Below are positions 1,729 to 63,900 of a stretch of DNA of 64,000 nt, in pieces. Both the position numbers and the translations under genes were made by a program. The notes under the pieces were generated by a model, which searched no databases, was not told the DNA's origin, and saw only the letters and a program-made list of their open reading frames with translations. Source of the DNA: Protoeuglena noctilucae. Taxonomy: Eukaryota. The stretch covers positions 1 to 64,000 of the forward strand of contig OY253680.1 in the NCBI GenBank assembly GCA_958009085.1, written 5' to 3'. Positions within the stretch are counted from its first letter, which is position 1; each line of letters opens with the position of its first letter.

Positions 1729-4233
1729 ATGGCGGACGAGGGGACGTCGATGGCACAGGCCAGCACCAGTCAACCCAAGGAGGGTCAGCCGGGGACCGCG
1801 GAGGAGCTCGTGGATCTCCCAGATCTTCGTTTCGACGGCAAGTTTGCGGACTTCGACCGCAGCAACAACCGGCAGGCGAGTGCTTCCGCGGGGGGGCGTG
1901 GTTGTGAACCGGTGGCCTGTCCCCGCACCGCGCTGCGCCGGCGCCCTCGCGACCGCCCTGCCCGACGCGGGCAATCAGAATTCACCCCGTCGCCGCTTCC
2001 CCATCCGCGATTGGCCGCCCGCCGCAGGTGATCAGCTCGTGGGCAGGGTCGGGGCAGCACCGCATCGTGCGGACGTTCCACTCAGACCGGGTCGTCGGGA
2101 ACGGCTCTTTCGGAGTCGTGTTTATGGCAACGGTGAGCCGCAGCCGCGGCGGGGGCTCCCGCGCGTCTCTGCGCGAGCGGCCGGGTCGCCCGGCGCTTGC
2201 GCGCTGTTTTCTCCGCGCGACGCCCGCCCCGCGCCCCGCCGCAGTGCCTCGAGACGGGCCAGAAGGTGGCGATTAAGAAGGTGCTGCAGGACCGCCGCTT
2301 CAAGAACCGCGAGCTCGACATCATGCGCATGGTCTCCCATCCCAACATCGTCCGCCTCCTCCACTGCTTCTTCACCTACGACCGGCGAGTGCTGAATATC
2401 ATGCGCGTTGGTAGTTTGCTTGATGAGAAGATATGCCATCCACGCACCGCCACTCCACTCTCCACTCTCCACTCCACTCCGCGGGAGCAAGATGTCTCTC
2501 GACCGTTTCAGCTTTGCCAAGAAAGCAACCCCTTCTGCTCCCCTCGCCTCCCTCGCAGGGACGACATGTATTTGAACCTGGTGCTCGAGTACGTGCCCGA
2601 CACGGTGTACCGCCTGTCCAAGCAGTACGCCAAGCGCGGCCAGCGCATGCCTGCCGAGGAGGTCCGCATGTACGTGTACCAGATATGCCGGGCGCTGCAC
2701 AGCATCCACCAGCAGGGCATCTGCCACCGCGACATCAAGCCCCAGAACCTCCTGGTGGACTCCGAGTCGCATGACCTCAAGCTCTGCGACTTCGGGTCCG
2801 CCAAGCAGCTGCGGCGGGGCGAGCCCAACATCTCGTACATCTGCTCGCGCTACTACCGCGCCCCCGAGCTCATCTTCGGCGCCACCGACTACACCACCAA
2901 GATCGACATGTGGAGCGTGGGGTGCGTCATGGCCGAGCTCTTCCTGGGGATGCCCCTGGTGAGATGATGGGCGGGGAGTGGGTGTGATTGGGGGAGTGGG
3001 AGAGTGGGGGAGTGAGGGAGTGGGTGACTGGGGTTGACGGGGTGACTGAGTGGGTGACTGGTTGTTAAGATGCCGGCTGTGGGTCAAGCGCAGTGTCGCA
3101 TCCCCGCCTGCGTTGGGCACCCGCACAGTCGCCCACATCAACACCCTCACCGTCACCCCCACCCTCACCCTCACCGCCACCCTCGCCCTCATCCACACCC
3201 TCACCCTCACTGCCACCCCCACTGCCACCCTCACCCACACCCCCACCCACCCCCTCACACTCCCCCCCTTCACCACCCCCCCCAGTTCCCCGGGGAGTCC
3301 GGCGTCGACCAGCTGGTGGAGATCATCAAGGTGCTGGGCACCCCGACGCGCGAGGAGATCCGCGCCATGAACCCCAACTACACCGAGTTCAAGTTCCCCC
3401 AGATCAAGGCGCACCCCTGGTCCCGGGTGTTCTCCAAGACCGTGCCCCAGGAAGCCATCGACCTCCTCAGCTGCTTCCTCCAGTACGACCCCACCAAGCG
3501 CATCTCGGGTGAGATGGGGGGGGGGGGGGGGGGGTTGGGTTACACAGCAAGCGCATCTTGGGTGAGAGATGCAAGAGGTGTTGATGAGGTGCAGATACGG
3601 TGTTGTGTGGGTGACACGGGTAGTATGAGCGCATGTTGGGTGAGAGAGGGGGTGGTGGTGGGGATAACACAGCAGGCGCATCTCGGGTGAGGGGATGGGG
3701 TGGGGGTGTGACATGGGTAATATAAGCATCTTGGGTGAGGGGGGGCGGGGCGGGGGTCGGGGTGGGGGTAACACACCAACTGTCACCAATACCATTCACT
3801 GCGTTCTTAACATCCCTCCCCCCTCACCCCCCCGCAGCGATCGAGGCCATGGCTCACCCCTTCTTCGACCCGCTTCGCAAGTCGGGGGGCTCCCTCAACG
3901 GCCTCCACTTCTGCAACTGGGTCGCGGGGGAGCTGGACGGGGTGGACGCAGCGCTGGTGGAGAAGCTGCAGCCGGCCAAGGTGACACATGCACTGCCGGG
4001 GGTGGGGTGGGGTGGGGTGGGGGGCTGCGATGTGTGGGGACGATCGATCAGTGCTGACGTGGGTGGGGTGGGGGGATGCGATGGGTGGGGACGATCGATC
4101 AGTGCTGACGGGGGTAGGCCGGCCGGGTCCACGCACCATGGCGTGTGACCTCGCGTCAACATTACATCCACATCACATCCATGCATCCCCCTCACTCACT
4201 CTCTCCGCTCCGCCTCCGTCCCCGCAGTCGTGA
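1729..4233 (+). CDS. GSK3: Shaggy/glycogen synthase kinase 3 (7 exons)
   Basis: Exons ~1729-1875, 2028-2132, 2245-2384, 2559-2958, 3286-3508, 3838-3980, 4228-4233 splice in frame. Motifs [65 protein letters not shown]. Introns 1 and 3 have GC donors. Confidence 0.97.
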
Positions 4234-5122: not shown

Positions 5123-8100
5123 TCACGCCACCGACCGCGCCTCGTGCTTGAGTGCCTTCTCCGTGGCTTCTTCCACAATCGCCTTGAGCATGCGCTTGGC
5201 CTGCTTGACCGCATCCGCAGACGGGCCCTCAATATACAAATACAGCTTGCGGTCGCCCTCGGGTATCTTGGCGCCGGGCTTGTAGTAGTTGCCTCTGACC
5301 ATGATGGAGCACTGGGTGGCCTCGGTGATGTCGCGGAGGTTCTCGCGGTGCGTGACCTTGTGGCTGAGGGGGGGGGAGGGGGGGGTAAGGGGTGAGTCCA
5401 AAACAATCCCTTACAACACATCCCCTCACCGTGCCTGCTGCGCTCACTCATCCCCCCAACACATGCCATCCACACCTCCCCAACCCCATCCACACTCACC
5501 GCGCGTTCTGCACAAAGTCGTTGATCTCCAGCTCCGCACTGAGGGCCGTCCACTCGTTGACGCTCCGGGGCTGGGAGGCGGCCATGGCCGACGCCTCCAG
5601 TGTCTGGTTGAGGCGGTCGATGACGCTGGCAGCGGCGAGCCGGGAGTCCAGGGATGAGCCGCCAGAGAGGGCGGCGGCGATGGCGGCGGCCTGGGGGAGG
5701 GGGGGGTTGGGGTTGGGGTGGGGTGATTGTTGGGAGCAGCGGCGATGGCGGCGGTGCAAACGGGGAATGAAAAATGGAGTACATAGAAAAATAAACCCAT
5801 TCCATACAAGATGTAAACCCCCAGTCACTTATCCCCCTCCCCTCACCTGCGCGGCTGCCCGTGACGCCTCGAGTGACGCCTCCGGCACCCTCGCACTAGC
5901 ACCCCCACTCGCACCGCCACTTGCACCCGCACCACTCGCACCGCCACCCGCACCGCTCTCCTCCCCAGCTGCGCGGTCGAAGCGACTGCGCCGGGGCTGC
6001 CCACTGACAACCCCACTGGTACCCACACCCGCACTTGTACCCGCACCCGCACCCGCACCCGCACCCACCCCCGCTTGCACCGGGCGCGTCATGCCCGGCC
6101 TGCCCACCACGGGCGGCGGGGGCGGCATGGACGCCGCGTCTGCGCTCGCCGTCTGCGCTGCTCCCGTCGTGATGCCAGTCGTGGTGGGCTTGCCAAATGC
6201 CTCGAGGTCGTCGTCGTCGTCTGCGGTGTCGCGCTTGGTGGTGGGGGCGTCTGCAGGGGGAGGGGGGAGGGGAGGGGTGAGTGGGGGGGATCGGGTAGGG
6301 TTAGTTTGGCATGTGTGAGAGGGGAGTGGAATGGGGGGAGGGAAGGGCACGATTGGAAGGGGGAGGTACATGAAGTGGTGTGTGCGAATGCGCCAACACA
6401 AACACGCACACTGCTAACAATCCATCGCAACCACGCCCATGACCCTCCATTCAACCACTCCCGGCCCCTCACCCACCCCCACTCCCCCACACCCCCCCCT
6501 CACCCCGCCCCCCCCCCCACCACCCACCATCCTCCAACCCCCACCCAAACTCACCCACGTCCACCAGCCCGTGCTTCTGCACCTCCGCGGCCCTCTCCGC
6601 CTTCCTCTCGCTCTCCTCCTGGTCGTCGAATTTGAATCCCGACCCACCATACCCCGACCCGTGCTTGGTCGCCCTTCCTTCCTTCACCGCCGTTTTGAAC
6701 TCGTCTGCCAGCTTGAGCAGGTCTTCCGGCACCGGCGGCCCCGCGTCTTTGAGCGCTTTGACGAGGTCCGGCGCGTACTGCGACTCGTCGGGTGCGATGA
6801 AGGTGATGGCCGTGCCCTGGTTGCCCGCGCGCCCGGTGCGCCCCACCCTGTGCACGTAATCCTCCAGGTGATTGGGCACATCGTAGTTGACCACCAACAC
6901 CAGGTCCGCGATGTCGAGACCGCGGGCGGCGAGGGAGGTGGCGATGAGCACGTTGCACACGCCGGAGCGGAAGTCCGCCACGGTCGACCCGCGGTCCGCC
7001 TGGTCCTTCCCCCCATGCAGGGACAGGCAGGGGTATCCCAGCTGCAGCAGTTCCCGGAACAGGTGGTCGCAGGCGTCCTGTTTCTGCACGAACACCAGCA
7101 CCTTGCCGCGGTCGTACCACTCGCCAAGGATCTCCAGCAAGCGCAACAGGCGGTCCTGCTGGGGCCGCACTTCCACGATCTGCTGGATCGATGCGTTGAC
7201 CACCGCGCGGCCGCCCACGAGAATCTCCACGGGATCTGCCAGCAGCTGCCTGGCCAGGTGCTCGACTTGGCGGGGGAAGGTGGCGGAAAAGAGCACGGTC
7301 TGTCGGTCCGGCCGGACCTGCTCCACCAGCCGCGTCACTTGCGGCTCGAACCCCATGTCGAACAGTCGATCCGCCTCGTCGATGACCAGCATGGTCACCC
7401 GCCACAGATTGGTGATGCGCCCGTTGCCAGTGACCAAGATGTCGATCATGCGTCCGGGCGTGCAAGCCACCATCTCCGTCCCGCGTTTGAGGTCCGCGAT
7501 CTGCGCGCCCACCCCGCTGCCGCCGTACACCGCCACGCACCCCAGCCCCACCACCCGCCCGAACCGCCGGCACTCGCGCGCGATCTGCGCCACCAGCTCA
7601 CGCGTGGGTGCCAGCACCAGCCCCACCGGCCCGTCGCCGTCCCGCAGCGGCGGCTGGTCCTTGATGTGCCTAAGCATCGGCAGGACGTATGCCAGCGTCT
7701 TGCCGGAGCCAGTCTTGGCGATGCCGATGCAGTCGCGGCCGCTCATGATGGCCGGGAGTGCCTGGGCTTGGATGGGGAGAGGGGCTGCGAACCCGGCCTT
7801 GCGCAGTGCGTCTTGCAGTCGCTGGGACAGCCCCGCCTGGTTCCAGGATGTGATGGGGGCGGGGACGTCCCGGCCGCGCACGCGGATGCCGTCCATCGTG
7901 CGGCGCAGGTGCTGCACGCCGTCCTGGGTTGAGAGGGGAGGGGGTGAGAGGTGGTGAGAAGTGAGAGATGAGAGAGGGGGAGTGAGTGGGGTGAGGACAG
8001 AGGGCAGAGGGGAGAAGTGACACCCCTTGCATACGACATCTCAATAACCCAGTGCAGCAGCGCACTATGGCAATGCTAACACCCACCATCCCTGTCCATG

Positions 8101-11484: not shown

Positions 11485-14400
11485 ATGAGGCAGTTCCCGG
11501 CCGTCCTGGGCTGCGGGGCGGCGCCCCCGGTCCTGGTGTGTTCGTGCGCAAGACTCCGCCCCGCGCTCGCCCCCGCGCGCACCCGGCGCCCCGCCCCCGA
11601 CTCCGCGCTCTCCGATATCATCCGCAGGCCCGCCGGGCGCGCGCCCTCCCCCCGCTGGCCCGCGCGGCCCCTCCCTCGCTGCTGCGCAACGTGGCGACGC
11701 GTGCCGAGGGCGACAACGGCGCAGCGCAGGCGAAGGGGAAGGGCAAGGGCAAGAACAAGGGCGAGGAGGAGCCCCCTTCCGCGTACCGCGACACGGTGAT
11801 CCTGCCCGACACGCCCTTCAGCATGCGCGCCAACAGCAAGACCCGTGAGCCCGAGCTGCAGGCCTACTGGGCAGAGCGCCGCATCTACGAGCGCCTGCTG
11901 GCCCGCAACGAGAGCGGCGGGTCGTTCGTGCTGCACGACGGCCCCCCGTATGCCAACGGCGACCTCCACGTCGGCCACGCCCTTAACAAGGTGCTGAAGG
12001 ATGTGGTGCTGAAGTACCACCTCATATCTGGCAGGCAGGCGCGGTTCGTGCCCGGGTGGGACTGCCACGGCCTGCCGATCGAGCTGAAGGTGCTGCAGAC
12101 GCTGTCAGAATCGGAGCGGGCGGGTCTGACCCCGCTGGGATTGCGCGCCCGGGCGGCGGCCTTCGCCAAAGAAGCCGTGGATCGCCAGATGGCCGGTTTC
12201 AAGCGGTACGGCGTGTGGGGCGACTGGGACCAGCCGTACCTGACTCTTCAACCGGAATACGAGGCGGCGCAGATCGGCGTGTTTGCCGCCATGGCGACCA
12301 ACGGGCACATCTATCGGGGCAAGAAGCCCGTCCACTGGTCTCCCTCCTCGCGAACGGCGCTGGCCGAGGCAGAGCTGGAGTACCCAGAGGGGCACACCTC
12401 GCCCTCCATCTACGGTGAGGGGCGGTGGGGGGTGGGGGGGGTGTGGGTGTGTGGGGTGGGTGTGGGTGGATGTGGGGGTGTGGATGTGTGCGGTGTTGGG
12501 GGTTTGTGTGGGATAGATGGATGGATGGGCGTTGAATGGGGTGTGTTTGAGTGTGTTTCGCTTACCACCCGCATCCCATCCCCTTCCCTCTATGCCCCCA
12601 GTGTCGATGCCAGCAACTGACGTTTCCGACAAGGTCCCGTCCGACCTGCGCACTGCGATGGTCTCTGAGGGTGCGTCCTTCATGGTCTGGACCACCACCC
12701 CCTGGACTATTCCGGCCAATCTGGCCGTGGCTGTCAACGACCGCCTCGACTACGCGGTGTGCCGCGTGACGGCGGTGGAGGGGAGCAAGGCGGTCGCGCC
12801 CGAGGGGTGAGATGTGCATATTGCATGGCATAGCATAGTTGAGAATGGTTGATGAGGGGAGCGAGAGTAGCGTGGCATGGAATGGGTGGTGGTGGCGATG
12901 AGTGCGCGGAGCGTGGTGGTGGCGACGGTAGGCACAGACTGTCTTACCATCCCATCCCCCCCAGTCTCGTGATCATCGCCAAGGACCTCGTCGACTCCCT
13001 CTGCGCCAAATTTGGATGGAAGGCGGACATCGTGGGTGTGGCGACGGGCGCGATGCTCGAGGGAAGCACGTATAAGCACCCCCTGTATGATCGCACGTCG
13101 CCTGTGGTGGTCGGCGGGGATTACATCACGACGGAGTCGGGGACGGGGCTGGTGCATACGGCGCCAGGGCACGGGCAGGAGGACTACCAGGTGAGAGAGG
13201 GGGTGGTGGGGTGATGGGTGATTAGGGGTTGTGTTTTATGGGGTGGGGGTGGTAGTAGTGAGGGGGGATAGTGGGTGGGCAGGAGGACTACTAGGTGAGG
13301 GATGGGGGTGGGTGATGGGGTAATGGGTGTTGGGTGGTGATGGGTTGGGTGGTAGTGGGGGTGGTGGTAGGGGTGGTGCTGCGAAGGTGCGTGGGGGTTA
13401 GTGAGAGTGGGAACACGGTGCATCCAAACCCCATCAGTCTTCATTTATCTTATCTTTTGTGGTTATGTTGACACGTCCCTCACTGCATCACCCCATCGCA
13501 GGTGGGCATGCGTTACAACCTGGGCCTGCTCTCCCCCGTCGATGAGGCGGGTCGCTTCACGGCGGAGGCGGGGGCGAGGTTCGAGGGGATGGCGGTGCAG
13601 GAGGAGGGGAACAGGGCAGTGACGGAAGCATTGCAAGAGGTGAGGGGGCATGCAATGCTAGTTATTGATATAACTGAGAGTGCATTGGACGACTAGAGAT
13701 GCAGGAGCGCTACCCCCACAACCACCATTCATCACTCATCACCCCTCTCTCCCCTCCCCCTCGCAGTGCGGCTGCCTCGTCATGCAGGAGCGCTACCAGC
13801 ACAAGTACCCCTACGACTGGCGCACCAAGAAGCCCACCATCTTCCGCACGACCGAGCAGTGGTTCGCGTCCGTCGAGGGATTCCGGAACGCAGCTTTGGA
13901 TGCAGCCAAAGCAGTGGAGTTCGTGCCCAGCGCGGGGGCGAATCGGCTGATGGCGATGGTGGAGGGGCGGTCGGACTGGTGCATCAGCAGGCAGAGGAAG
14001 GTGAATGGGGATGAATGGGTGGGAATTGGGGATGGTTGTGATGAGTTGCGTGTGATGATGAGGATTAGTAGTCGTGTTGGATATGATGAGAGGGAGTGGT
14101 GCATCAGCAGCAGTTCTGTTGTTAGCGTTACATGTCACCCGTCAACATTCAAAAACCCCCTCACCCGTCAACATTCAAAAACCCCCCCTTCTCCCCCCCC
14201 CCCCCCCAACAGTGGGGCGTCCCCATCCCCGTCTTCTACCACCGCCAGACTGGCGAGCCGCTCATGACGCCAGAAACGATGGGGCACGTCCAGAAAGTGG
14301 TGGCGGAGAGGGGGTCCGATGCCTGGTGGGAGATGGGCGAGGCGGAGCTGCTGCCGGAGGTGAGGGGTGGGGGTATAAAATTTGAATTTAATGAGTGATA

Positions 14401-17197
14401 AGTGATAGGGATGGGGTGTGTGATGAGAGGGGGTTGGATGCGTGCCCTTCTCTGTCCCATCGCCGACAATCGCCAAGGGGAGACACCAAATAGCACATGT
14501 GTATCACCCTCACTTACTCACCCTCACCCACTCACCCAATCCCCACCCCCCCCACCCCCCCAGTCCCACCGCCACTTAGCAGCCGACTACCGCAAGGGCG
14601 AGGACACGATGGACGTGTGGTTCGACTCCGGCTCATCCTGGGCGGGGGTGCTGTCCGCCAGAGACAATCTGACATTCCCCGCCGATCTCTATTTGGAGGG
14701 ATCGGACCAACACAGGGGGTGGTTCCAATCATCGCTACTCACGGCGGTGGCGGCGATGGGGCAGGCCCCCTATCGTGCTGTGGTGACGCACGGGTTCGTT
14801 CTGGATGAGAAGGGGATGAAGATGTCAAAGTCGCTGGGGAACACGGTGGATCCGCGGGCGGTGATTGAGGGGGGCAGGGACGAGAAGAAAGAGCCGGCGT
14901 ACGGGGCGGACGTGCTGCGGTGAGGATGGAAGGGGGAAGAGTGCTGTGGATTGGACGACCGACGTGATGACTGAGATTGACATTCCACATTAACTAATAA
15001 CATAAGATACCAACTCATTCAAATACCACCCTTTCCACCCCCAGCCTGTGGGTCTCGTCGGTGGACTACACCAGCGACGTGATGATTGGCCCGGGCATCC
15101 TGCGGCAGGTGTTTGACGTGTACCGCAAAGTGCGCACCACCGTGCGGTTCCTGCTGGGCACGATCAGGCGAGGGATGGGGGGTGGGCGAGGTTGTTGCCA
15201 TCGATATATATGGATAGTATTGGTATGCTACTCATAAAGCGTAGTACTGGTGATGACCATGACGCCACTCTTCCACCCCCAGTGACTTCGACCCCCTCGT
15301 CCACTCCGCTCCCCTCTCCGACATTGCATACACACCAACACTATTAAGTAGTGATAGCTAATAATAACAATAAGCACATAACCACTCCCCCACCCATTCC
15401 CACCCCGCAGTGACTTCGACCCCCTCGTCCACTCCGTGCCCCTCCACTCCCTCCCCCCCCTGGACCGCCACGCCCTGGCGCTCCACTGGCGTTTCATGCG
15501 GCGTGCCAGAGACGCCTATTCGTCGTATCAGTTCGTCAAAGTGTACCAGGGACTGCAATCGTGGTGCAGTGCGGACCTGAGTAACTTCTATCTCGATGTG
15601 GTGAAGGATCGGCTGTACCTGGAGGGGAGGGACGCTGTGGGGAGGAGGGCCTGCCAGACGACGCTGGTGAGTGGGGGGGGGGGTTGAGGGGTGGGGGTTG
15701 GTGGAGGTGATGTGGGGGGAATGGTGATGTGGGGGTGGCATGGGTGGTGGTGGGGGTTGTAGTGGGGGTGGTAGAGAGGGTGGGAGTGGGGCTAAGGGTG
15801 GTGATATAAGTGGTAGTGGGGTTGGTAGTAGGGGTGGTAGTGGGGGTGGGGGTAAGGGTAGCAACGCTGCTGTGTGACTCTGCCATCAGTCGCCACTCAT
15901 CCCTCCCCCCCTCTCCACTCCTCCAGTACCACATCACGCGCGGCCTGCTGTCTGCCGTGGCGCCCATCCTGCCCCACCTGGCCGAGGACGCCTGGCAGAG
16001 CATGGGGCTGGCCAGGGGGGAGGTGAGGGGCAGTGGGATGGGTGATGATGATGAGAGAGGTCGTGTCCGGTGTCACGGCATGTCGCACATTGCAGAGCGT
16101 GTGATGTTCACCCCACATCCATCAAGCTCTCTTGTAATACACAGACACGTAGATATACCCAACTTATCCCCACCCCTCCCCACCCCCTAGGAGGACCCCG
16201 ACTCGGTGTTTCTGGCGGGGTGGCCAGCCGAGCCAGAAACGCCCGAGAGTGCGCCAGAATCCGGCATCGCCGATCTCGACGTGGCGTTCGTGGCGGTTCG
16301 CGGAGTGAGGGACGTGGCTAACAGGGCATTGGAGCAAGCGCGGAGGGACAAGGTGGTGGGGTCATCACTCGACGCGCAGGCGAGGGGTGGTGGTGTTGTT
16401 GGATGGGATGAGATAAAGTGAGTGCGACGAGCTGGTGGGGGCTTACTGACAGTACTGGCTGGCTCATTGTCAACAATCTAATCTATCAACAGCCCCAGCT
16501 CCCTTCCACGCCCCCTCCTGTCCCCCTCACACATCGTCATTCACAACACTGCCACTCCCAGTCCATTCAAACCAACTTTACACCTCACCCTCACATCCAT
16601 CCTTCTTCTCCCTCACAGCTCTCTGTGTTTTTCGAGGACCCCAATGCCCGCGCCATTCACAACGTTAGACATTCCCACTCTATTTAAACCATTTCAACAA
16701 CCCAACACCCTCACATCACCTCCCCCCTCGCAGCTCTCGGTGTTAGTCGAGGACCCCCCCTCCCGCGCCATTCTGGCGTCGGCGCTGCCAGAGTCGCTGG
16801 ACGGCGTGGGGGGCAGCCTGCGCAAGGTCTGCATCGTGTCCCAGGCGGCACTGGTGGACGCGATTCCCACTCAAATGGCGTTTGTGGAGGAGGGGCAGGT
16901 GGAGGGGCTGGGGAGGGTGGTGGTGGGGGTGGGGAGGGCTGAGGGGGCCAAGTGCGAGAGGTGCTGGGTGTATGACGTCAAGGTAAGGGGTGGCGGTGGG
17001 GTGCAGCTGGTGTTGTGTATGCGCAGCTCGTGTCTTGAACTATCACCGTCCCAAGCATTGATACAGAACTGTCCTTCCCTCTCTCTACCCCTCAGGTGGG
17101 TTCCTTCTCTGACCACCCCACGCTGTGCCCACGCTGCCATGGGGTGGTGACGAGGGGGCTGGTCAAGGATAAGGTCGCAGCGACGAACGCGGCGTGA
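11485..17197 (+). CDS. ileS: Organellar (bacterial-type) isoleucyl-tRNA synthetase
   Basis: [73 protein letters not shown] and C-terminal CERCW...CPRC zinc finger. The Ala/Arg/Pro-rich N-terminus ending VATRA resembles a transit peptide. About 13 exons; start codon inferred. Confidence 0.96.
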
Positions 17198-18320: not shown

Positions 18321-21300
18321 TCACGCCCCCCCCTCCATGAGCCTCCTGGCCACCACGGCGCTGCCATTGCCGGGGCCGTTGCGGATCTTCAGATCCTGGA
18401 TCTCCGCCTCCAGGTCACCTGGGGAGAGGGGAGTGGGGGGGAGTGGGGGTGTGTTTGGGGGTGTGGGTTGTGAATGTGTTTGGGGGGGGGGGTGGGTGGG
18501 AGCGCCGCTGTTGCTGTTCTGCCATTGTCGCTGTCACTGCCGCTGTTGCTATCCACCATGCTGTCCCTCCCACCACTCACCCACGTCGTCTGGCTTCTTG
18601 CGTGCGAATGCCCCCTTGATGCGAGACATCAGGCCGCCCTTCTTGCGGGGCTCCTCGGAGATGGGGGGCTGGGGGGGGGGAGGATGAGATGTTGTTGATT
18701 GTTGTTACAGTGAGGGGTAGAGAGGGGCTGGGTGGGAAGTCACTTGTGTCGTTACATCACTGCCGCTGCCGATGCGCACCCCCGCAACAATAACACAACA
18801 GACACCACCATCACCACCACCCCATCTCTCCACATCTACCCCCACAACCACCCCCCACAGCCAACTCCCACCTGCGTGGTGACCGCCGCCAGCCTGGACG
18901 TCCTGGCCGGCGCGTCCATGGCCGCCACGCCCGCGTTGCCCACCGAGAAGGACCCCGGGCGGAGCATGGCGCCCACCTGGCGCACGGCGGCGGGGATCAC
19001 GGGGGCCGCCTGGGGGGGGGGGTGGTATGGGAGGTGGTATGGGTGGCAGTGGGGGTGATGGTGGTGGTATGGGTGGCAGTTGGAGTGGCAGTGAACACAA
19101 TGGTGCAATCATCTGCGTGTTTATTCATATCCACCCCCAAACCTGTACCCCTACTTATCTCCAACCCACCCACTTAACACTCACCGCATGGGTCGTCTGC
19201 GTGGCGGACCCCTCGTCGCGGTTGACAGCCGTGGAGAAGGACTGAGGGCGGGATGGCATGGCCTGGGGGGCGGTGACGGAGGTGACGCGGCCGGGGTTGG
19301 CCTTCCTGGGAGTGAGGGGGGGGGGGGGTGGGAGGGGTGGGCGTCAGCGAGGGGTGGTGGTGTGGTGAGGGTGGGGGTGAGGGTGTTGTGGTGGTGTGAG
19401 GGGGGGAGGTGAGGGTAGTGAGAGTACAGAGCTCGCTCCGCACACCCATTCACAACCCCCACCGCGCGCCACCCCACCAGTGCGCCACCCCACTCCACCC
19501 TCCCCATCCAATGTAAACACCAACCTCCCCATCCCCCCCCACCTGTGCGCCATGTCCTGCTGCGCGAGCATCTCCGGCGTGAAGGAGAGATTCGATCTCT
19601 CGACCCCCGCGGGCTCAGGCACATCAGCCGGAGCAGCAGCGGTGGCGGTCGGGTGCACGCGGGCCCAGTCGGCCGCGTCCGCGTTCGCCGCGATCCACGG
19701 GTGCGCCAGCAGCCACTCCATGTCGGGCCTCTTGGCGGCGGACTTGGTGAGCACCCGCGTCATGAAGTCGACCGCGGCCGAGGACAGCCAGGGTGGGTAC
19801 TTGGGCTGCTGCGTCATGATGGCCTGCGACACCTGCTGCCGGTTCTGGCCGCGGAAGGGCGGGCGGCCCGTTAAGAGCTCGTAGGCGAGAACGCCTGGGG
19901 GTGGAAGTGCGGGAGGGGGTGGGTGAGAGAGAGTGGGGTGAGAGAGGGTGCTAACATCACAGTGCGCGCGAGATGCGGGCAGCGGTGCCATTCATCCGAC
20001 CCAATTCCATCTGATCGCTCATTATATTTCGCTCACCCGTGGCCCAGCAGTCGACGTTGGCGGTGTAGGTGGCCACGGGGTCGTCCTTGAAGTCCTCGGG
20101 GCGGTCCTTGGTGTGGCAGAGCAGGATCTCTGCGGGCCGAGGAGTCGAGAGAGGGACGCGAGGTGTTTTATTATCGATAATTAACATCGATATATGTATT
20201 ATAAGATACAACGCCGGTGCACAGGCTCCGGAATGGGCCTCCCAAACTGCCGTGTTGTCGTAAGTAACTCCGCTGCGCTGTGCAGTCGCAGCCTCACCGG
20301 GCGCCATGAAGTCGAGCGTCCCGACGCGCGTGACGGGCCGCTCGTCGTGGAAGGAGATCGCGAGGCCGAAGTCCCCCAGCTTGGGCACGCCCGTCCGCGT
20401 AATAAAGATGTTCTCGGGCTTGAGGTCGCTGCGGGGATCGGGAGCCGCCGATCGCGCGCGCGATTGGTGGAAAATGCAACAAAGATACCCATTCCTCAAA
20501 AATGCCCCCGCAGCGGACGCCGGTGAGCAACTTATGACCCAAATGCAAACAGCAGCGACAAAAGCGTCCCCGCTGCACTCGCCGGTGGATGATGCCGTTG
20601 TCGTGGAGGTACTTGAGGGCCTCCATGACGGGCAGCATGATCTGCACGACGTCCTTCTCGGTCAACTGGCCCTTCTTGTTCCGCAGCGTGACGAAGAGGT
20701 CGCCCTTGGCCGCCAGCTCCTGGACCAGGTAGTACGCGCTCGCGTCCTCGAACGCGGCGTAGAGATCGATCACGTTCGGATGCACCTGGAGACGTGGAGG
20801 AGCGCGCGGTCGGCGCGGCGAAACGCGCGGAGGGGCGGAGCACGCACATCCCCGCCCTCCTCACCAGCGCCGCGTGCATGGCGACCTCTCGGCGAACTTG
20901 GAAGTCATTCAGCTTGGACAAACGGCTCTTCTTGTACGCCTTGATGGCCACGGGCGTGCGCGTCGTCTTGCAGAAGGCATGGCACACGATGGACGCGTAG
21001 CCCTCTCCCAAGTTCTTCCACATCTGCGCGAGAGGGGCGTCGGGGAACGGAGATTCCTACCGGCCACGAACACTCGCAGCGACGGGCCGCGGGAGGCAGG
21101 GGAGGGCCGCGCGCGGGCGCACCTGAAAATCATCGATGCTCCACTGCCCGTCCGCGTGGCTGGCCTTGATATCTTCCGGGCAACAGGCTGCGAGCGAAAC
21201 GACACCAAAGGTCAGCGCCGAGGGGCGGCGAGAGGATCCCCGCTCGGGCCCCTCAGAGACCGCGGGGCCTTTGCGTGCGCCAAACGCCTGGGCCCCACGA

Positions 21301-25326: not shown

Positions 25327-25436
25327 TGGGGTGTGTTAATTCTCTTGATGCGAACGTTTGATTGAATGCGCCGGCATGCATGCTAGGTCAACTCGCCAGC
25401 TAAGATCGAGCTACCAACGCAACAATAGCTCTGGGC

Positions 25437-35951: not shown

Positions 35952-36005
35952 AGCAGTTGAGGCGTGGTGCGGCTTGAAAGGGGCACGACACACTGTATGC
36001 CGTGC

Positions 36006-46200: not shown

Positions 46201-48969
46201 TAGAGGACATGCTGGTCAAGGACGGCAGCTTCCGGTGGTCGCGATTGGAGAACCTTTTGAAGGAGGGGGCCAAGTCATCCGACTACGACGCGGAGCAGCT
46301 GTGGCTGCTGGCGGAGTGGGTGCTGGGGGACCGGAAGAACGGAGTGCGGTGAGGGGGGTGGGGGCGATGGGGTGTTAACTAGGACGAGTGCGGATGTTGG
46401 GTGTAAGTAGTGACTTTGCATATAATGGACGCAGTCACAGTGCTAACTCACCTCCACACCCACCCCTCTCCACCACCTCACATCCCCACCCCACACAACC
46501 GCACCTCACCCATCCCCCCCCCCCCCACCCCCCCCAGCAAGCCCCTGGTCCGCGAGGCCATCAAAATCCTCGACGCCTACATCGCCGACGCCTGGCGGCA
46601 GCAGGCGGCGGCCACCTACGGCGCAGCACTGGCCGAGCGACTGCTGCCACGACAACCCCACGAGCGCGCTGATCGCGACCGCGCCCAATTGCTCATCGAC
46701 ACCCTCACCGCTCGCCTCGCGTCGCCACCCCCCCGCGGCTCGGGTCCCATGGGCACCCTGACCCCCGCCGAAGCCGCCTCGTTTCTGACGGAGACGCGCG
46801 AACGTGCTATGGCCACGTTCCCTCGACTGGACCGCGTGCTGAGGTCCCCCGGGGCCGTGGAGGCGATCAATGAGTTGTCGACGGGGCTGGCATCGAGGGG
46901 GGCGGCGCGGTTCGTCAAGCTTCTGATGCAGGGGATGGACCCGGCCGTGCAAGAGCGGATGGCGCAGGGGGTGGGGGTGGGGGCGGCGGGTGAGGATGAG
47001 TGACGATGATCAGTTATTAGAACACATGAGGTTGTTATCTGTATGTATGTCTCTATCTGTGGTAGATGTAGATGTTGACTGTGACAGTGGTGTGGGTGCA
47101 AGAGAGGGTGGCTGCAGGGGGTGGGGGTGGGGGCGGCGGGTGAGGAAAGGAGGAGAGGGGGGAGTTGAGGATGATGTCTCTGTGGTAGATATTTATCTGA
47201 GATTGGTATAGATGTGGACTGTCACAGTGGTGTGGGTGCAAGAGAGGGTGGCTGCAGGGGGTGGGGGTGGGGGCGGTGGGTGAGAGGGAGAGGAGGGGGG
47301 GTTGAGGATATCTGTATGTATACGTGACAGACAAAGATGTTGACTGTCGTGGTGTGGGTGTTGCGGTTTGATAGTCTGCCTCACGCCCACATCAAGCACT
47401 CACCGATATAACCCCACTCCTCTTTGGCACCCCCAGGCGGCCCCTTCAGCCCCGCCACCTCATCCCCGGGCATGTGGACACCCCCACAAGGCACCAACCC
47501 CTTCTCATCACCCAACCTCTTCACGTCTAACCCCTTCACATCGCCCATGCATTGGGCCAACCCCGGCAACACCAACGCCAACACTGCTGCGCAATCCCAC
47601 TCCCCCTTCTCGTGGCTGGGAGGGGCGGGGTTTGCGGAGGGGGGGTGTGGGGGCGAGGGCGTGCGGGAGTGGTGGAGGGGGGCGGGGGACATGAGTGGGA
47701 AGTCAAACAGTCAGGTGGGTGGATGGCGACTGTGTTGTGAGAATGTGTTGTGCTCGTGAGTATTGGATACTGATACTGATACAGTTTCTTATATGTAGAT
47801 ATGTGTGGCGCCGACGGAAGCACGTTTTGCGCACCGCAGGGCAGCCCTTCTGGCGCCGGCCGAAACGCCAGGACCGGCGATGCCAGTGCCAGTGCCAGTG
47901 CCAGTGCAAGCAGCAGCACTGCTGGTAACACCACAAGCAACAACAGCACCAACACCTGTAGCGGTGCTGGTACCAGCAACAGCAATGCCAGCAGCCACGC
48001 CAGCAATGGATGGGGCTTTTTCGAATCTCCTGCCCCCCATCCCTGGTCCCCTTGGGCCGGCAGGCCCAACTACGGGGCGCCTGGGACGATGGGGGAGGCG
48101 GGGCCACTGACGCAGGCACTGGTGAGGTTGACATTGGTTGCTAGTGGTTGCTAGTGGTTGCTATTTGATGCGTTGATGTTAGGGTGACGTTCACGGATAT
48201 TTATATTGATAGCGATAGTGACGCTGGCTACTGCATGATACACTTTATTTCTGATAATTGATCATCAACATCAATAACAATATCAATGTCAATATCAATC
48301 ACCAACGACACTCCCCTTTCCTCTCCCCAGGGCCTGGCGGCGTTCGGTGCGAGTGCGGCGGCTGAGGCTGCCCAGGCAGCGAGTGCGGCACTGCAGTCAC
48401 TGGCAATGGCAGCAGAGGGCGTGGAGATGGGCAGACAGGGGGGTGTGGGTGGTGTGGGTGACGTCGGTGGTGGGGCGGTGGGGGTGGGGGTGGCAGATGC
48501 GGGGAAAGCGAGCGCAGCTGCTGGGGTGGTTAATGGGGCTGCAGGGGTGGGAGCGAAGGGTGTGGCGGGTGCGGTTGCGGTGGGGGCGGCTGCAGAGGTG
48601 TCGCGCGTTCCAAACAACCAGCATGATACGAAGAGTAGTGCTGGCGTCAGTACCACCACTACTAGTACTACTGTAACTGTTACTGACAAGATCGACTCTT
48701 CTGTCGTCGAGAGTAATAGTAGTGGGCCAGGGCAGGGGCAGGAGAGGAGGCGCAGGGGTGGTGCGGTGGGGGGCAAGGGATCAAAGCGGGCGTGGGTGCG
48801 GAGGCGGGGCGGGGGTGGGGCGAAGAGGGGCGGTGGGGGTGGCAGTGCAAGTGGTGGGGAGGTGGGGGTGAAGAGGGGCGGGGGGGGTGGCAATGGGGGT
48901 GGCGGTGTGGGTGGCGGTGCGGGGCTGAAGAGGGGTGGTGGGGAGGAGGGGGTGGGTGGGGATGCGTGA
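43228..48969 (+). CDS. ABC1/UbiB atypical kinase (plastid ABC1K-like) with a low-complexity C-terminal extension; N-terminus unresolved
   Basis: [99 protein letters not shown] donor at 46989 joins further in-frame exons (47436-47713, ~47840-48121, 48331-48969), which are less certain. Confidence 0.9.
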
Positions 48970-54732: not shown

Positions 54733-57700
54733 TCACGCCGCCTTCTTCCTGGCGAATATGTTGACGGTGGTCCTCTGCTCGGGCGGCGGCACCTCTGCCA
54801 CGCGCTTGCGGCCCAGCACCGACCCGCACTTGCCCGACACATTGGCGCGGTCCTGGGGTGTGAAAGCGACGTTGAGGGTGTGAATCTAAGCAATAGCACT
54901 TTCTTATCACTGTCCCAGCCCATACACCAATGCAAACGCAAGCTTCGCCCCTCACCTGCCCCAGCACACTCCCACCCCTCGCTTCCTTCGCTGGGACCGA
55001 CGATCGCTTTGGGGCGTCCCCCACGCGGCCATCCTCTGGCACCTGAGGATAATGGGTAGCATATGGTAGACGTAGTATTTAATGTATATAACGTCCTACT
55101 TTGTTCCCCTTCATCTCCCACACCCACACCACCACCACACCCGTTCCGCCACCCACCCCTCCCCTCACCTCCTCTCCCTCCTCCTCCCCCTCCACACCCC
55201 CACCCCTCCCATCCACCTCCACCCCCCCCGCACGCCCCTGCACCCCCACTGCACCCCCCACTGTACCTCCTGCCCCCACCGCCACCCCCACCCCACCCAT
55301 CGCCATTCCCCCAGCCACCCCCACCGCCTGCGCCATCAACGCCTCCTCCTCCGCTTGCTGTCTCTCGTGCTCTGCCTGACACCGCAGTTCCAGCAGGGCC
55401 TGCACCCGCTGAGTCAGGGCCCCGTTGCGCTTGGCGGCCACCAGGCGAACGGCGCCCTCCAACTGCAAGAGTGGAGAAGGTTGGGGGTTGGGTGAGTGAT
55501 GGAGAGTGGATGAGTGAGTGTTGAGGGAGAGAGAGTGAGTGAGTGGAGATGGGGCAATGGGCGGCCACCAGGCGCACGGCGCCCTCCAACTGAGGAAGGA
55601 GCATGAGTGAGTGACAGCAGTGTCCAACCATCATTCATTTCATCCACTACCCCCTCACCATGTCGATGGTTATCAAATGTGCTGCCAGGTCGTATGCCTT
55701 CAGGAAGTCGTCCTCGCGCAGAGCCTCGTTCATCTCACGCAGGGACTGGGAAGGGGGGAGGGGGAATATAGAATAATGAGCGGTAGAAGAGGGAATATAG
55801 GAAAAGAGCGGGTTTGCGGTTGGTGATCTTTGCATCCACCGCCATCCATCAGCGATTATCATTTATCTCAATGTATATCTAATACATATTATTGCCGCAA
55901 TTAAACCCATATATACACCCATACACCCTCACCAGCGCGTCGATGGCCTTCTCCTCCCTCCCCAGCGCCTCGATCGCTGCCCCCTCCCCCACCGCAGCTG
56001 CAGCTCTCGCTTGGGGCAGCAGCAGCGACCGACGCACGCGCTCCTCCTCCATCTGCCACCCGGTCGACTGCAGCACGGGGACCTGCGGGGGGAGTAGAAA
56101 GGCATATCATATTTAGTAATTATGATGGTTATAAATATTATAATACAAATTTTATACTATTAAAATATTAATATTAGGTATCGTTACCATTACTACTGCA
56201 AGTATTATAGCGTAACATAGTTATAGTTATAAATCAGTAATATTATCATTATAGTTAATATACACATCCACCTCCCCCTCCTCACCTTATTTGCGAACCT
56301 CTGCTGCACCGGCCGCGGGTGCGGCTGCGGGTGCTCCCCTTTCCTCGTCACGACGCAGTGGGTCTGGTGGACAGACATGCCCACCATGAAGAAGTCCTCC
56401 TGGTCGTTCTTGCGATAGTCACTGGCGTTAAAGACGGGGACCCACTGGGGAGGGGAGGGGGTGGGGGTGGTGAGGGTGAGGTGTGAGGGGGTGAGTGGGT
56501 GGGGAGTGAGGGGGTAGCAGTGGGGGTGGCAGTGAAGGTATGGGGGGTGGGAATGGGAAGGGAGGTGAGCGGGTGGAGCGATGCAATAAAAACAACTTCA
56601 CAACCTCCCATCCACACATCCCGACCCCCCACTCGCCTGCCCCCCCCAGTCCTCGGCCCTCACGCGCCCCACCCCCGCAGAGTCATACACAGCCCAGCAA
56701 ACCCATTCAATTCAAGCACAGCACATTCAAATCCAACACAGTACATTCAAATCTAACACAGTACGTTCAAACCCCCATCACTCGCCTGGCCCCCCCAGTC
56801 CTCGGCCCTCACGCGCCCCACCCCGGTAGAGTCATAGATCGCCAGCAGACCCTCCTCGGTGAACCCCGCCCACTGCAGTGTCGCTTTGGGGCTCAGGGGC
56901 ACAGGGCCGGAGGAGACCAGCTGACGCGTGCCCACGTCCCAAGACTGGGGGGGTCGGATGGGATGGGGTGTGATGGTGTTATTTACTATTGTCATGGTTT
57001 TAACAGTGGTACGTACCACTCGTGTGAGTGGCGCGACTGGTTGTTTGCGGTGAGTGCAATTATATGTGTTGCCAGTCTCACCATGTAAGAGAGGGCGTGG
57101 TCGCCGTCCGGAGAGGGGGGGCCTGCAGATGGGGAAGAAGAGCGTTTTGTTCATGCATATGAGCGAGAAACGAGGATTGATTGTATCAATCGCACTTGAC
57201 AACCCTCACACCCCACCCAACCACCCTCTCACCTGCCCTGTAGATGGCAGCCAGGCTCTCCCCGCTCCCCACCAGCGCCACGGGGTCGCCCGGCAGCGCC
57301 AGCACCGCCGCCTGCACCCCGCCCAGCGTCACGACACGCACGTTCCTACGCACCGTGGCGGCCGCCAGAAACCCGGTCCCGGCCGCCACGCACGCCGCGG
57401 CCTCTCCCTCGGGAAGCGGCAGGGCCCACTCGTGCCTCCCGCGGGCCCACGAGTCGAAAGACAGAAACGCAATACTGTCAACTGACGCGTCGCCAGCATC
57501 GCGGCCGTCTTTCGCTCCTCGCGCCGTGATCAGCGCCACGCCGTCTTGGGACAGAGCCGCCGCGAATGCACCGGCGAAGTCGTTGTGGTTGATGGGCCGG
57601 GCGCGCGCCATGGTGTCGTGCATGTGAGCGTCGATGGTCTGGTACGCGCCGCTGTCTAAGCAAGCCACGTAGCCTGACGGGGTGTATGCCAGGAAACGGC

Positions 57701-60901: not shown

Positions 60902-63900
60902 ATGGTGCTCCGAGAGCACTACCAGCGGAAGCACGATGTCGGCCGCGCCAAGTCCGCGCCACGGCGGCGGAAGTCCAAGCCGCGGCCGCCCTGGGACGTG
61001 AGCTCGCGCGCGCTGGCTCGCACTATGTTTCCTCTCCCCATCCCGCGCCGCGCGCCGAAGCTCCGCGCCCGCCCCTCGCGCCGCAGGACACCAACCAGGA
61101 TCTGAGCAAGCTGCGGCTGACTCCGGCCCAGCTGGAGGCGCGGCGGTCGCAGCGCGTCTCCCACAACCGCGTTGTCGTGACGGGTGCGCCCCCCGGCCGC
61201 CCCGCCTCACCGCCGCCCCTCCCGCGCATCCATTTTACTTCAACTTTCCCAACCTGCATCGCAGAGGAGATGCGCCGGCGTTACCAGGCGGGAGAGGACG
61301 AGGACGAGGACGACTATGCGGCCGGCATGGACGAGGAAGAAATGCGGCGTCACGTGACGCACGCGCTGCTGCGGGCCGCGGGGGAGCGCGCGCGAGGGGC
61401 CGCGGCGGACCCGGCGCCCGCCCCTGCGCCCAAGCGCACGGCTCTCGAGGTTTTGCGTGACTTGCGCGCCGACCGCCTGCACCCCGAGACAAGGGACTTT
61501 GAGGAGGAGGAGAGGGCGTTTCTGGCATCGCAGACGCGCAGCGCGAGGAGGTCCGCGTGAGGGGCTGCGGGGTTGTCGGGGTGGTTGGGGGCCCCGTGCA
61601 GCCACCCCACTCCTCTGCTTGCCGCCACCCCACCACCCACAACCCATCAACCCCACCCACCGCACCCATCTCCGCAGCTCCAACTCCCGCGTCGGATCCC
61701 GCGTCGCGAGTCGCCAGCGCATGGGCACGGGCGCATCGCTGGGGCGGTCGAGCCCCGGGGACGCGCCGCAGCGGTCCCTCAGCAAGGCGTCGCTGCCATC
61801 CGACACCCGGTGAGGATGTGGTGTATGCAATGTAAAGGTATGGATGTGATGTGAGGCTGTGTGCATGGATGCGATCGCATTGCAGCACATCCCTGCTGGT
61901 TTGCCTCACCTCCTGACCCTCCTTACTCTCAACCCCCAACAACCCTCCCTCCCCTCACCCTCCTCACACCCTTGCCACTCCCACAGGGCTCCCTCTCCCA
62001 CCCGCCGCATTCCCGCCATCGCCACCGCTGCCGCACGCGACGACGCCGGCCATGGCCCACGCCCCGCCTCCCCGCCCAAAGCCAGCGGGGCACCAGCTGC
62101 AGAATCACTTGATCTAAAACCAGGGCTGGGTCAGGTCACGCGAGCGGGCGTTGCAAACGCAGCTCGGGACGGCACAGCGGGGGCGCGGGCGGTGGGTGGT
62201 GAGGAGGAGCGGGAGGGCGGTGTAGGGGGCGGTGGATGGGGGGCCGGGGCGAGGGTACGGGCGCGGCCAGGGTCGCCCACCAGGCTGCCGCGTGTGTCTG
62301 AGGGTGCGGACGGGGCAGGGAGTGCGAGTGGGGTTGGGCACGGGGAGGTGGGGGCGGGGGCTGGGGTGTCTGTGGAAGGGGTTGAGGGTAGGGGTGGCTC
62401 TGGGCAGCGCGGGGGTGTGGGCGGAGTGGCGGGTGCAAGAGAGAGGAGCGGGGTGGTGGGGGATGGGTCTGGGTTGGAGGCACGGGGGCGAGCCCCAGAG
62501 GGCCGCCCGCCTGCACCAGCCTGGGACGAGAATGGGTTCGAATCCTGGGACAGGAATGAGTTCGAGTCCTTCCGGGACCACACCACGGCGGTGCTGACGG
62601 CCATGCAGCGGCAGCTGGGGCAGCTGCTGGCGGCAAAGGGGGCGGGTGTTACAAGCGGGGTGGGTGACAGGGGCGGGGCGGGTGGGACGGGGAGGGCGAC
62701 AGGGACAGATGGCGATGCGCATTGGTCGAGGCGGGTGGTGGCGGGGCCTGGGGGTGGGCTGGAGGAGGATCGGCGCCCTGCGTTGGCGAATGCGGGGGCG
62801 CACCCTGGCGGGGCGCGGTTCGTGAGGCGGGGAGTGGAGGCGGATGCGGGGGTGAGGGGCGCGTGGCAGGGTATGTGTGGGGCTGTGGTTGGTGTGGTTG
62901 TGGCAGAGGCAGCTGTGGTTGTGGGGGGCTGTTGTGGCTATCTTGCAATAAGCGTATCCTGCGCCCAGGTATCGCAGGAGGGTCCTCCCATCACGGCCTT
63001 CACTCCCTACGAGCGTCGGGTGCAGGCGGAGGGGTCGGGGCACAACATGGAGTCGACCCTGGTGAGTGAATGAGGAGAGATTGAGTGAGTGAGTGAATGA
63101 ATGAGTGAGTGAGTGAGTAAGGAATAGACCCTGGTGAGTGAATGAGTGGGTGATTGATGAGTCCAAACAGTCGTGAGTGCAAGGGGTAATCAGGTGAGAA
63201 CGCAAGTCACGAGGAGTCAACTTTAGTGAGTGAGGAGTGGTGAAGGAGTCGTTGTGTTGCACCATCTCACTTCGTTGCACACTCCTCACTGCAATGCACG
63301 CACCTCGCCTTGCACAGTCTCAAGTCGTCGCACGCCCTCGCCGCCTCGCAGAGAGCGTCCCTGGCGCCGCTGGCATCCGCATCCACTCCCCTGGGGACCT
63401 TTGAAGAGGTCTTTGGGCGGCCGGCGCGGTACGTCCCGCCACCGCGCCCCGCTTGGAGGGCGGGCGACGAGGGGAAGGAGGAGGAGGGGACGGCGGCAGC
63501 GGTGCGGCAGGGGCGCAGCAAGGTGCGTCTGAGGGTGTGTTGGGCAGCGCTGCTGACGGTGGCAGTGCACACCGCTCTGCCAGCGCTGTGCGTGTGCCAG
63601 CGATACAGCGCTCGACCTCTTTCACTCTTGTCACGCTCGTCCCTCGCGACAGCACTCGGCCCCCCCTCCCCATCCCCAAAGCCCATCCCGTGCATCACAG
63701 CAGCGACGCTCACCCTCTCACCCTCCCGCCCCCCTCTTCCCCCCCAGGCCCACCCCAGCAGTCGCAGTCACGGCAACGTGGGTGCCGAGGTGGACGAGGA
63801 GGCTGGCCTGCCCTCGTATGCCTCCATGCGACGTGCCACAGGGTACCGGGCCACGGGCCCCGACGTGGGCGTGCGCATCACGCACCGCGCTTACATCGGA

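Follow-up and report, generated by a model that had tools for sequence, protein, structure and literature searches.

The first 64,000 nucleotides (nt) of contig OY253680.1 of the alga Protoeuglena noctilucae (assembly GCA_958009085.1), hereafter the window, are densely packed with genes and have a G+C content of 64%. Introns are plentiful: 96 GT-AG introns with a median length of 183 nt were called in 19 genes, and together they make up 31% of the window. Their consensus is G/GTGAG at the donor (the slash marks the splice junction) and CAG at the acceptor. Genes that could be named, by Pfam matches on six-frame coding segments, are listed in Table 1 together with the introns discussed individually. 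The subject of this analysis is the composition of these introns, most of the longer ones being G-rich at the start and C-rich at the end. An earlier note on this sequence had described them as bipartite, with a G-rich 5' half and a C-rich 3' half, and had proposed that long-range RNA stems or 5' G-quadruplexes define them and may help to select true splice sites over echo sites.

Genes were called with a two-strand Viterbi model that relies on nothing but codon log-odds and the immediate splice sites, through matrices covering -3..+6 at the donor and -5..+1 at the acceptor, and that admits GT-AG introns only. Because introns and intergenic DNA share one null model, the interior composition of an intron has no influence on the calls. 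All intron results come from the fixed-matrix joint version of this model and concern the 96 predicted introns of this single 64-kb window. Two other versions were discarded: a first one that under-called (46 introns, many kilobases long) and a self-retraining one that ran away to 215 introns. A tblastn search with IleRS homologues recovers ten exon blocks with contiguous query coordinates, and Pfam profile coordinates continue across the ABC1, kinase, Anticodon_1 and Mcl1_mid junctions. For 24 introns both flanking exons have homology by Pfam or tblastn, and these are referred to below as the homology-bracketed set. Marine metatranscriptomes contain 0.33-0.46 of the sampled words of positions 2001-12000, where the called coding-exon fraction is 0.39; this is compatible with spliced transcripts, and was not counted as evidence.

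The compositional polarity of the introns is real. When the sequence is read directly, the five intervals singled out by the earlier note are GT...AG introns that start G-rich and C-poor and end C-rich and G-poor, and the gene finder recovers them at 2959-3285, 12415-12613, 15667-15926, 44087-44282 and 46349-46537. The second interval had been given an end at 12601; the model prefers an acceptor at 12613, and both acceptors are in frame. The pattern is found on both strands, as had been stated: the minus-strand intron 6251-6554 reads alike on its own strand. An intron was scored as polar if, after trimming of the splice signals, its first 50 nt contained more G than C and its last 50 nt more C than G, and as strongly polar if the G/C skew was >0.3 in the first 50 nt and <-0.3 in the last 50 nt. 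Polarity is present in 64 of all 96 called introns and depends on length. At 150 nt or more, 50 of 63 introns are polar (41 strongly, 3 reversed), in keeping with the claim that most long introns show the pattern; the fraction is 10/19 at 100-149 nt and 4/14 below 100 nt. The homology-bracketed set gives 20 polar introns out of 24, and among its 19 members of at least 150 nt there are 16 polar, 14 strongly polar and no reversed introns. The strong pattern is seen in 1 of 410 length-matched pieces of sense exon and in 7 of 410 intergenic pieces.

From start to end of the 82 introns that measure 100 nt or more, the G fraction drops from 0.45 to 0.10 and that of C climbs from 0.15 to 0.55, while A and T remain near 0.2. 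The change is abrupt at the splice junctions. Skew steps from +0.18 in the exon to +0.68 in the first 15 nt after the donor, where it is strongest, and from -0.57 in the intron to -0.12 in the exon at the acceptor; the strongest skew at the 3' end, -0.69, is reached between -30 and -16 nt from the acceptor. Over the first 30 nt of introns the G fraction is 0.49-0.55 and that of C 0.07-0.13. A scan of 60-nt windows that makes no use of annotation found 31 G-to-C switches, of which 26 fall inside called introns, and 15 C-to-G switches, while 20-nt block shuffles yield about 11 of each type. Tracts in the wrong orientation are absent: none of 90 introns has at least three CCC in its first 40 nt, and none has at least three GGG in its last 40 nt. 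The pattern is a gene-level or regional trait: genes at 21889-26709 and 31037-32811 have introns without polarity and a mean 5' skew of about 0. The stretch at 26-28 kb has a G+C content of only 50%.

The description of the two parts as halves was not borne out, since the switch from G to C does not lie at the midpoint. For the same reason a criterion based on strict halves gives a lower count (41 of the 63 introns of at least 150 nt). Instead, the C-rich part is anchored at the 3' end with a length of about 100 nt, and the G-rich part takes up the variation in length. Median lengths of the C part are 93, 109, 113 and 106 nt in introns of 120-180, 180-240, 240-340 and 340-800 nt, respectively. 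The length of the C part is nearly independent of intron length (Spearman 0.12), whereas that of the G part follows it closely (Spearman 0.73, slope 0.92-0.98) and reaches 340 nt or more. The homology-bracketed set displays a weaker form of the same trend, with a median C part of 88 nt and Spearman coefficients of 0.35 for the C part and 0.67 for the G part.

The 3' module has an ordered interior. Within the final 150 nt of introns that reach this length (63 introns), the motif CTCAC occurs 85 times, and 35 of these occurrences fall 20-40 nt upstream of the 3' splice site; CTGAC and CTAAC are nearly absent from the same region. CTCAC fits the general form of a branch site and is a likely branch-site motif here; reverse-complemented, it gives exactly the donor core GTGAG. 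It is followed by a C-tract and then by CAG. The last 20 nt or so of introns consist of C (0.62-0.70), T (0.16-0.21), A (0.06-0.10) and G (0.06-0.08), and the nearest AG upstream of the 3' splice site lies at a median distance of 54.5 nt.

Both parts are built of imperfect tandem repeats, with units such as GGGGAGTG, GGTGGGGGTGGT, CACCCT and TCACCCTCACCCAC. The most frequent 5-mers are GGGGG, GGGTG and GGTGG in the 5' part and CCCCC, CACCC and CCCTC in the 3' part. From the GTGAG donor onward the G tract is made of degenerate tandem units resembling GGGTG or GGTGAG, and many sequences within it look like donors. If a decoy donor is defined as an internal site that scores at least as high as a lower-quartile real donor, 48 such sites are present in the G parts of 26 of the 96 introns (e.g., 2959-3095 and 12415-12555). 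Their density is 2.5 per kb in the G part and 0.2 per kb in exons. A further repeat, a 42-nt unit present in 4.5 copies of 97% identity at 29383-29571, lies almost wholly inside the minus-strand intron 29245-29553; it is a young minisatellite, and therefore introns here grow by tandem duplication.

Table 1. Genes identified in the window, and introns and intron parts considered individually. Skew is G/C skew on the strand of the gene.
Feature	Position	Strand	Basis or description
GSK3-like kinase			Pfam
DEAD-box helicase			Pfam; a segment at the 3' end of this called gene matches a KH domain
Organelle-type IleRS			Pfam
Two further kinases			Pfam
ChaC			Pfam
EamA transporter			Pfam
G-patch protein			Pfam
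Rad51-like protein			Pfam
ABC1 kinase			Pfam
Ctf4/WDHD1-like protein			Pfam
GSK3-like kinase intron, G-rich C-poor 5' part	2959..3095	+	137 nt, skew +0.73, degenerate GGGGAGTG units
Tandem repeat in G part of GSK3-like kinase intron	2973-3033	+	
GSK3-like kinase intron, C-rich G-poor 3' part	3096..3285	+	190 nt, skew -0.77
Tandem repeat in C part of GSK3-like kinase intron	3142-3268	+	Period 6 and 18
DEAD-box helicase gene intron	6251..6554	-	G part 6393-6554 (skew +0.85), C part 6251-6392 (skew -0.82)
IleRS intron	12415..12613	+	G part 12415-12555 (141 nt, skew +0.93), C part 12556-12613 (58 nt)
IleRS intron	15667..15926	+	G part 210 nt (skew +0.91), C part 50 nt (skew -0.80)
Protein-kinase gene intron	19306..19542	-	G part 111 nt (skew +0.74), C part 126 nt (skew -0.91)
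Counter-example without polarity	23822..23927	-	C-part skew -0.08, no G part
Counter-example, ChaC gene	24647..24806	+	No G part, skew -0.09; borders less certain (GGAG acceptor)
ABC1-kinase intron	44087..44282	+	G part 89 nt, mixed centre, C part 107 nt
ABC1-kinase gene intron	46349..46537	+	G part 80 nt, C part 109 nt; predicted panhandle
Ctf4/WDHD1-like gene intron	56445..56812	-	G part 229 nt, C part 139 nt

The borders of several of these introns can be placed by homology. That of the GSK3-like kinase is exact when compared with homologue P0122, residue 322 ending at 2958 and residue 323 starting at 3286; its C part consists of CACCCT and CTCACC units and terminates in CCCCCCCAG. The exons flanking the IleRS intron at 12415 match homologues P0006 and P0004 by tblastn. 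At its 3' end (12590-12613) two in-frame acceptors lie 12 nt apart, CCCCAG at 12601 and GCCAG at 12613, and homologue spacing slightly favours the latter but is not decisive. Across the IleRS intron at 15667, in which the G part is long and the C part short, the Anticodon_1 profile of Pfam stops at position 64 and resumes at 65, with additional support from tblastn. The ABC1 profile covers positions 1-87 upstream and 93-123 downstream of the intron at 44087, and the Mcl1_mid profile covers positions 184-223 and 226-284 in the exons on either side of the Ctf4/WDHD1-like intron. The ABC1-kinase gene intron at 46349 has a minimum free energy (MFE) of -72.6 kcal/mol (z -2.83 against whole-intron shuffles and -1.76 against part-wise shuffles), and the protein-kinase gene intron holds tandem repeats at 19349-19416. 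The minus-strand counter-example belongs to the gene at 21889-24179, whose introns have a mean 5' skew of -0.08. An intron at 56083-56285 (minus strand) is unusual here: its start is G-rich over a short stretch and its end is C-rich, but the core is strongly A/T-rich.

Two models are doubtful. At 15182-15410 (within 15166-15411, plus strand) the model requires a micro-exon of 37 nt, 15245-15281, between two introns; IleRS homologues have no residues at this position, and there may be a single intron with a non-GT donor. The called minus-strand intron 20786-20864 (within 20785-20865) is questionable in another way, as the kinase segments 20585-20791 and 20796-21047 abut in different frames. The Pfam coordinates of the segments at 20585-21047 are contiguous (55/56), which could reflect an assembly frameshift, a very short intron or an error of the model.

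The proposal that the two ends pair with each other was examined by thermodynamic folding, which predicts the behaviour of naked RNA, for 61 introns; z-scores rest on 10 shuffles for each of these and, for the part-wise comparison of the five introns named by the earlier note, on 40 shuffles. Predicted pairing across the intron is extensive. Of the base pairs in native introns 59% join the two halves, as opposed to 36% after dinucleotide shuffling of the whole intron, and two of the five named introns fold as panhandles, with z-scores of -2.8 and -4.1 against whole-intron shuffles. However, nearly all of this pairing stems from composition. Native introns have 42.7 cross-half pairs and whole-intron shuffles 25.2, but half-wise shuffles have 45.4; since shuffling within halves gives equal cross-half pairing, bipartite composition by itself forces a panhandle in silico. 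The MFE is -86.3 kcal/mol for native introns, -82.2 for whole-intron dinucleotide shuffles and -82.1 for half-wise shuffles, and the graph distance between the first and last nucleotides is 17 steps in native introns, 13.1 in whole-intron shuffles and 13.7 in half-wise shuffles. In the folding model, the actual sequence adds about 5% of energy and no extra bridging. The comparison with half-shuffled controls called for by the earlier note thus yields a modest excess of stability and no excess of cross-half pairs.

Nor do the arms of an intron prefer each other. The duplex energy of the two arms in 63 introns (RNAduplex) is -43.6 kcal/mol for an intron's own partner, -41.8 for swapped partners and -42.1 when each arm is mononucleotide-shuffled, while the first and last 70 nt of exons give -48.0 kcal/mol. 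With 0.5 as the rank expected in the absence of specificity, the own partner comes out at 0.445-0.457 (p=0.13, 0.23), and it pairs better than all others in 1 of the 63 introns. An additive row-plus-column model of the same matrix detects no significant partner specificity (diagonal residual -1.8 kcal/mol, p=0.18), and the few strong outliers are mostly atypical introns. The reversed, uncomplemented 3' arm is unfit as a control, because tandem repeats stay complementary after reversal. The skews of G and C tracts correlate with a rho of 0.20 across introns, which drops to 0.09 once gene means are subtracted; across exons rho is 0.34. Introns with both GGG and CCC tracts number 22 of 90, against 17.1 expected (p=0.046); pairs of tracts that flank an exon number 22, against 16.1 expected (p=0.007). 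Predicted accessibility does not separate true donors from internal decoys (0.36 vs 0.28, p=0.16, paired n=21; 37 decoys were examined). As for the suggested 5' G-quadruplexes, a canonical motif is present in only 17 of 75 5' halves and absent from the other 58. Overall, these tests lean against pairing as the selected property, and a role for pairing is weakly supported.

Work on G triplets in short GC-rich vertebrate introns was reportedly done by McCullough and Berget, who are cited in PMC4691745. G-rich and C-rich intronic splicing enhancers and C-rich polypyrimidine tracts of such introns are described in Murray et al. 2008 (PMC2481429) and in the SON preprint (10.64898/2026.03.20.713095). 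The algal introns are likewise short and GC-rich, with G runs downstream of the donor and a C-rich, U-poor region before the acceptor, and by analogy the additive, protein-read model of the vertebrate introns might apply to them. In LCAT intron 4 (PMC2481429), G and C motifs both lie upstream of the polypyrimidine tract, whereas in the alga the two types of motif are strictly sorted to opposite ends, with a C module of about 100 nt and a G part that scales with intron length. The same paper reports that changing C motifs to G motifs breaks a predicted stem-loop and leaves splicing intact. Part of the composition of the polypyrimidine tract is shaped by purifying selection that avoids spurious AG, according to Yildirim and Vogl 2023 (PMC10946897). 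As in the introns covered there, G and AG are depleted upstream of the 3' splice site in the alga; here, though, the G-poor zone extends over about 100 nt and far beyond the branch-like motif in the upstream direction, with the C-poor zone at the 5' end as its counterpart.

A close parallel is with the human introns of Lin et al. 2016 (PMC4691745), who define a class with at least three GGG in the first 40 nt and at least three CCC in the final 40 nt. Introns of this class account for 16% of the structured ones in human, a four-fold excess over chance; their folds are barely more stable than shuffles (-113.85 vs -111.47 kcal/mol), and bridging is offered there as a suggestion only. In the alga such tracts occur in 22 of the 90 introns that reach 80 nt and in 21 of the 63 that reach 150 nt. 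The two groups share GC-richness, the placement of G triplets after the 5' splice site and of C triplets before the 3' splice site, and folds slightly more stable than shuffles (-86.3 vs -82.1 kcal/mol in the alga, half-wise shuffles). They differ in that the algal tracts run through the whole intron instead of being confined to its terminal 40 nt on either side, are made of tandem repeats and occur in the majority of long introns (50/63 polar, as opposed to the 16% of the paper), and in that co-occurrence is 1.3-fold in the alga, no greater than across exons, compared with four-fold in the human introns of the same source. The same paper also describes teleost introns with (AC)m at the 5' end and (GT)n at the 3' end, which are about one third more stable than dinucleotide shuffles and for which co-occurrence of the tracts is the key evidence for pairing. 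The algal introns resemble them in carrying complementary simple repeats, grown by repeat expansion, at opposite ends. Neither the AC/GT placement nor the gain in stability is shared, however, the algal ends being of the GGGGG/GGGTG/GGTGG and CCCCC/CACCC/CCCTC types and the gain about 5% (-86.3 vs -82.2 kcal/mol, whole-intron shuffles); nor is co-occurrence of the tracts specific to introns in the alga. A report of such intron polarity in an alga was not found in the open-access literature searched. The alga presents a more extreme and orderly version of a known pattern, with polarity along the whole intron, a C module of about 100 nt, a satellite make-up and the involvement of most long introns.

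The explanation towards which we lean, with slightly more confidence than doubt, is that the G runs and C tracts are splicing signals read in single-stranded form, that they grew by slippage, and that pairing between them is a by-product. The G runs would do the work that G-triplet intronic enhancers do in short GC-rich introns of vertebrates. The C module would comprise a C-rich, U-poor polypyrimidine tract and the branch region, and its scarcity of G would spare the true 3' splice site any premature AG and GT nearby. In a genome with exons as GC-rich as its introns, the two tracts together might distinguish intron from exon and 5' from 3' end, and would be read along the RNA by the splicing machinery and auxiliary proteins. 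Growth of the tracts might occur by replication slippage of G/C-rich micro- and minisatellites; if only the orientation suited to each position survives, the k-mer spectra of the two parts would become reverse complements, and G:C pairing between them would be an automatic consequence and at most an auxiliary aid. We favour the reading of single-stranded signals because the steps at the junctions are sharp, because the 3' module is fixed and contains a positioned CTCAC and C-tract, and because the G part fills the rest of the intron, wrong-way tracts are absent and partner specificity is lacking.

Several observations weigh against this explanation. Upstream of the branch-like motif, the C part has A and T in about equal amounts (~0.2 each) and is not a classical pyrimidine tract. 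A pure signal model has no account of how the decoy donors are ignored, and indeed none of the explanations considered here accounts for decoys in the G part. Introns are about 5% more stable than their half-wise dinucleotide shuffles (p=2.4e-5, median z -0.86), as compared with 1% in exons (Mann-Whitney p=0.003); z is below -2 in 15 of 61 introns, with 10 shuffles each, and ranges from -1.3 to -2.8 in the five named examples against part-wise shuffles. Permutation of 3' ends within genes leaves a borderline excess of introns with both tracts (22 vs 18.3 +/- 2.0, P=0.052). The 5-mer spectrum of the 5' part correlates, within composition classes, with the reverse complement of the 3' part, with a rho of 0.75-0.9 in the largest classes, in most of which it shows no correlation with the plain complement. 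This last result is non-discriminating, because both generic selection for pairing and satellite mutation with an orientation filter predict it. Finally, the introns themselves are predictions of a gene model.

The main competitor is a generic bridge, in which the two tracts pair without a specific register and the resulting panhandle brings the 5' splice site together with the branch and 3' region. It draws on the predicted cross-half pairing and example panhandles, on the excess of stability above that of exons, on the mutually reverse-complementary k-mer spectra, on the excess of introns positive for GGG and CCC (22 of 90, against 17.1 expected), and on the precedent in PMC4691745. We regard it as rather improbable. 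Half-wise shuffles match its cross-half pairs, and the predicted folds do not bring the splice sites any closer together; arms swapped between introns pair as well as those of a single intron, the ends of exons pair at least as well, and co-occurrence is equally strong across exons. With a C part of about 100 nt and a G part that scales, most of the G in long introns would be left without a partner. The stability gain of 5% compares with about a third in fish (PMC4691745), and a stem-loop model failed when tested in a human intron (PMC2481429). The stronger claim, that a register-free panhandle, and not contacts between proteins across the intron, is the main device matching the 5' splice site, amid many decoy donors, to the branch and 3' region in nearly every longer intron, seems to us decidedly improbable; if it were true, it would mean lineage-wide structure-assisted splicing of a kind so far shown only in a subclass of fish introns. 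At the other extreme, the tracts might have no positive function and be mostly a neutral by-product of slippage-expanded G/C satellites under negative selection only. C-rich, AG-poor sequence would then be tolerated near the 3' splice site and G-rich sequence elsewhere, the opposite arrangement creating cryptic acceptors or silencers. The imperfect tandem repeats, the scaling of the G part, the variation in strength among genes (some of which have no pattern), the lack of a sequence family or specific complementarity and the absence of wrong-way tracts (0/90) all suit such a view. Neutrality is nonetheless improbable in our judgement, given the sharp junction steps with skew peaks of +0.68 and -0.69, a C module that hardly varies in size, the concentration of CTCAC at a defined distance from the 3' splice site, and a tolerance of decoy donors (2.5 per kb in the G part) that does not look like simple avoidance of cryptic sites.

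Two further explanations can be given far less weight. RNA G-quadruplexes, or co-transcriptional R-loops on a G-rich non-template strand, might be the functional element, with the C part as a separate polypyrimidine signal. The leading 5' 5-mers (GGGGG, GGGTG, GGTGG) and the distribution of canonical quadruplex motifs (17 of 75 5' halves, 4 of 75 3' halves) point in this direction; yet 58 of the 75 5' halves have no such motif and most G is predicted to be paired with C in the folds, which leaves the idea very unlikely. An introner-type origin, from a transposon family with terminal inverted repeats, would explain numerous introns with ends complementary in composition. However, the 122 high-scoring segment pairs between different introns are all short and of low complexity, with 59 in the same and 63 in opposite orientation, and the best 25 of the 122 measure 49-108 bp with 71-84% identity. 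A self-inverted match occurs in 5 of 96 introns, while 49 match some other intron inversely. No multi-copy intron family with terminal inverted repeats was found among the 96 introns of the window, and we consider this origin exceedingly improbable.

Several other features of the window deserve mention. It starts with a telomere-type repeat at 1-204 (about 34.7 copies of ACCCTA, i.e. CCCTAA-type, with 94% matches), so that its start is a chromosome or contig end; the first called gene lies about 1.5 kb beyond the telomere array. Arrays of CCCTAT or CCCTNT hexamers at 9815-10046, which resemble degenerate telomere units, sit in the divergent intergenic region between the genes at 5123-9572 (minus strand) and 11485-17197 (plus strand). 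The stretch at 47070-49600 is G-rich, with a 140-nt tandem duplication (47070-47338) and several GGGTG-type arrays, and has no called gene; it may be an untranslated region, a missed gene or satellite DNA. Rfam has zero matches across the window. The lineage is poorly sampled, as the nearest named relatives of the GSK3-like kinase, from green algae, reach 53-56% identity and a search with a Ctf4 exon gave one relative at 53%. A metagenome search with exon 1 of IleRS returned 80 loci with identities of at most 73% and no close relative of the alga, and protein searches with IleRS and GSK3 found no identical full-length protein. A database protein, P0121 (256 aa, 99% identical, window positions 2197-2964), is an unspliced open reading frame that runs from a kinase exon into the intron, and public protein sets for this organism appear to derive from prokaryote-style gene calling.

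If the polarity is a signal that is read out, this alga shows how introns can be recognised when they are no less GC-rich than the exons, and no more so: the ends would be marked by two opposite, homopolymer-like compositions, and a 3' module of set length would carry the branch and acceptor signals. The pattern would then also aid gene finding in GC-rich protist genomes, since the G-to-C switch alone located 26 called introns. These introns offer an extreme natural test case for the question of whether arrangements of G and C triplets act via proteins or via RNA pairing. If composition and slippage turn out to be the whole explanation, they would warn that predicted panhandles, even strong ones, need not result from selection for structure.

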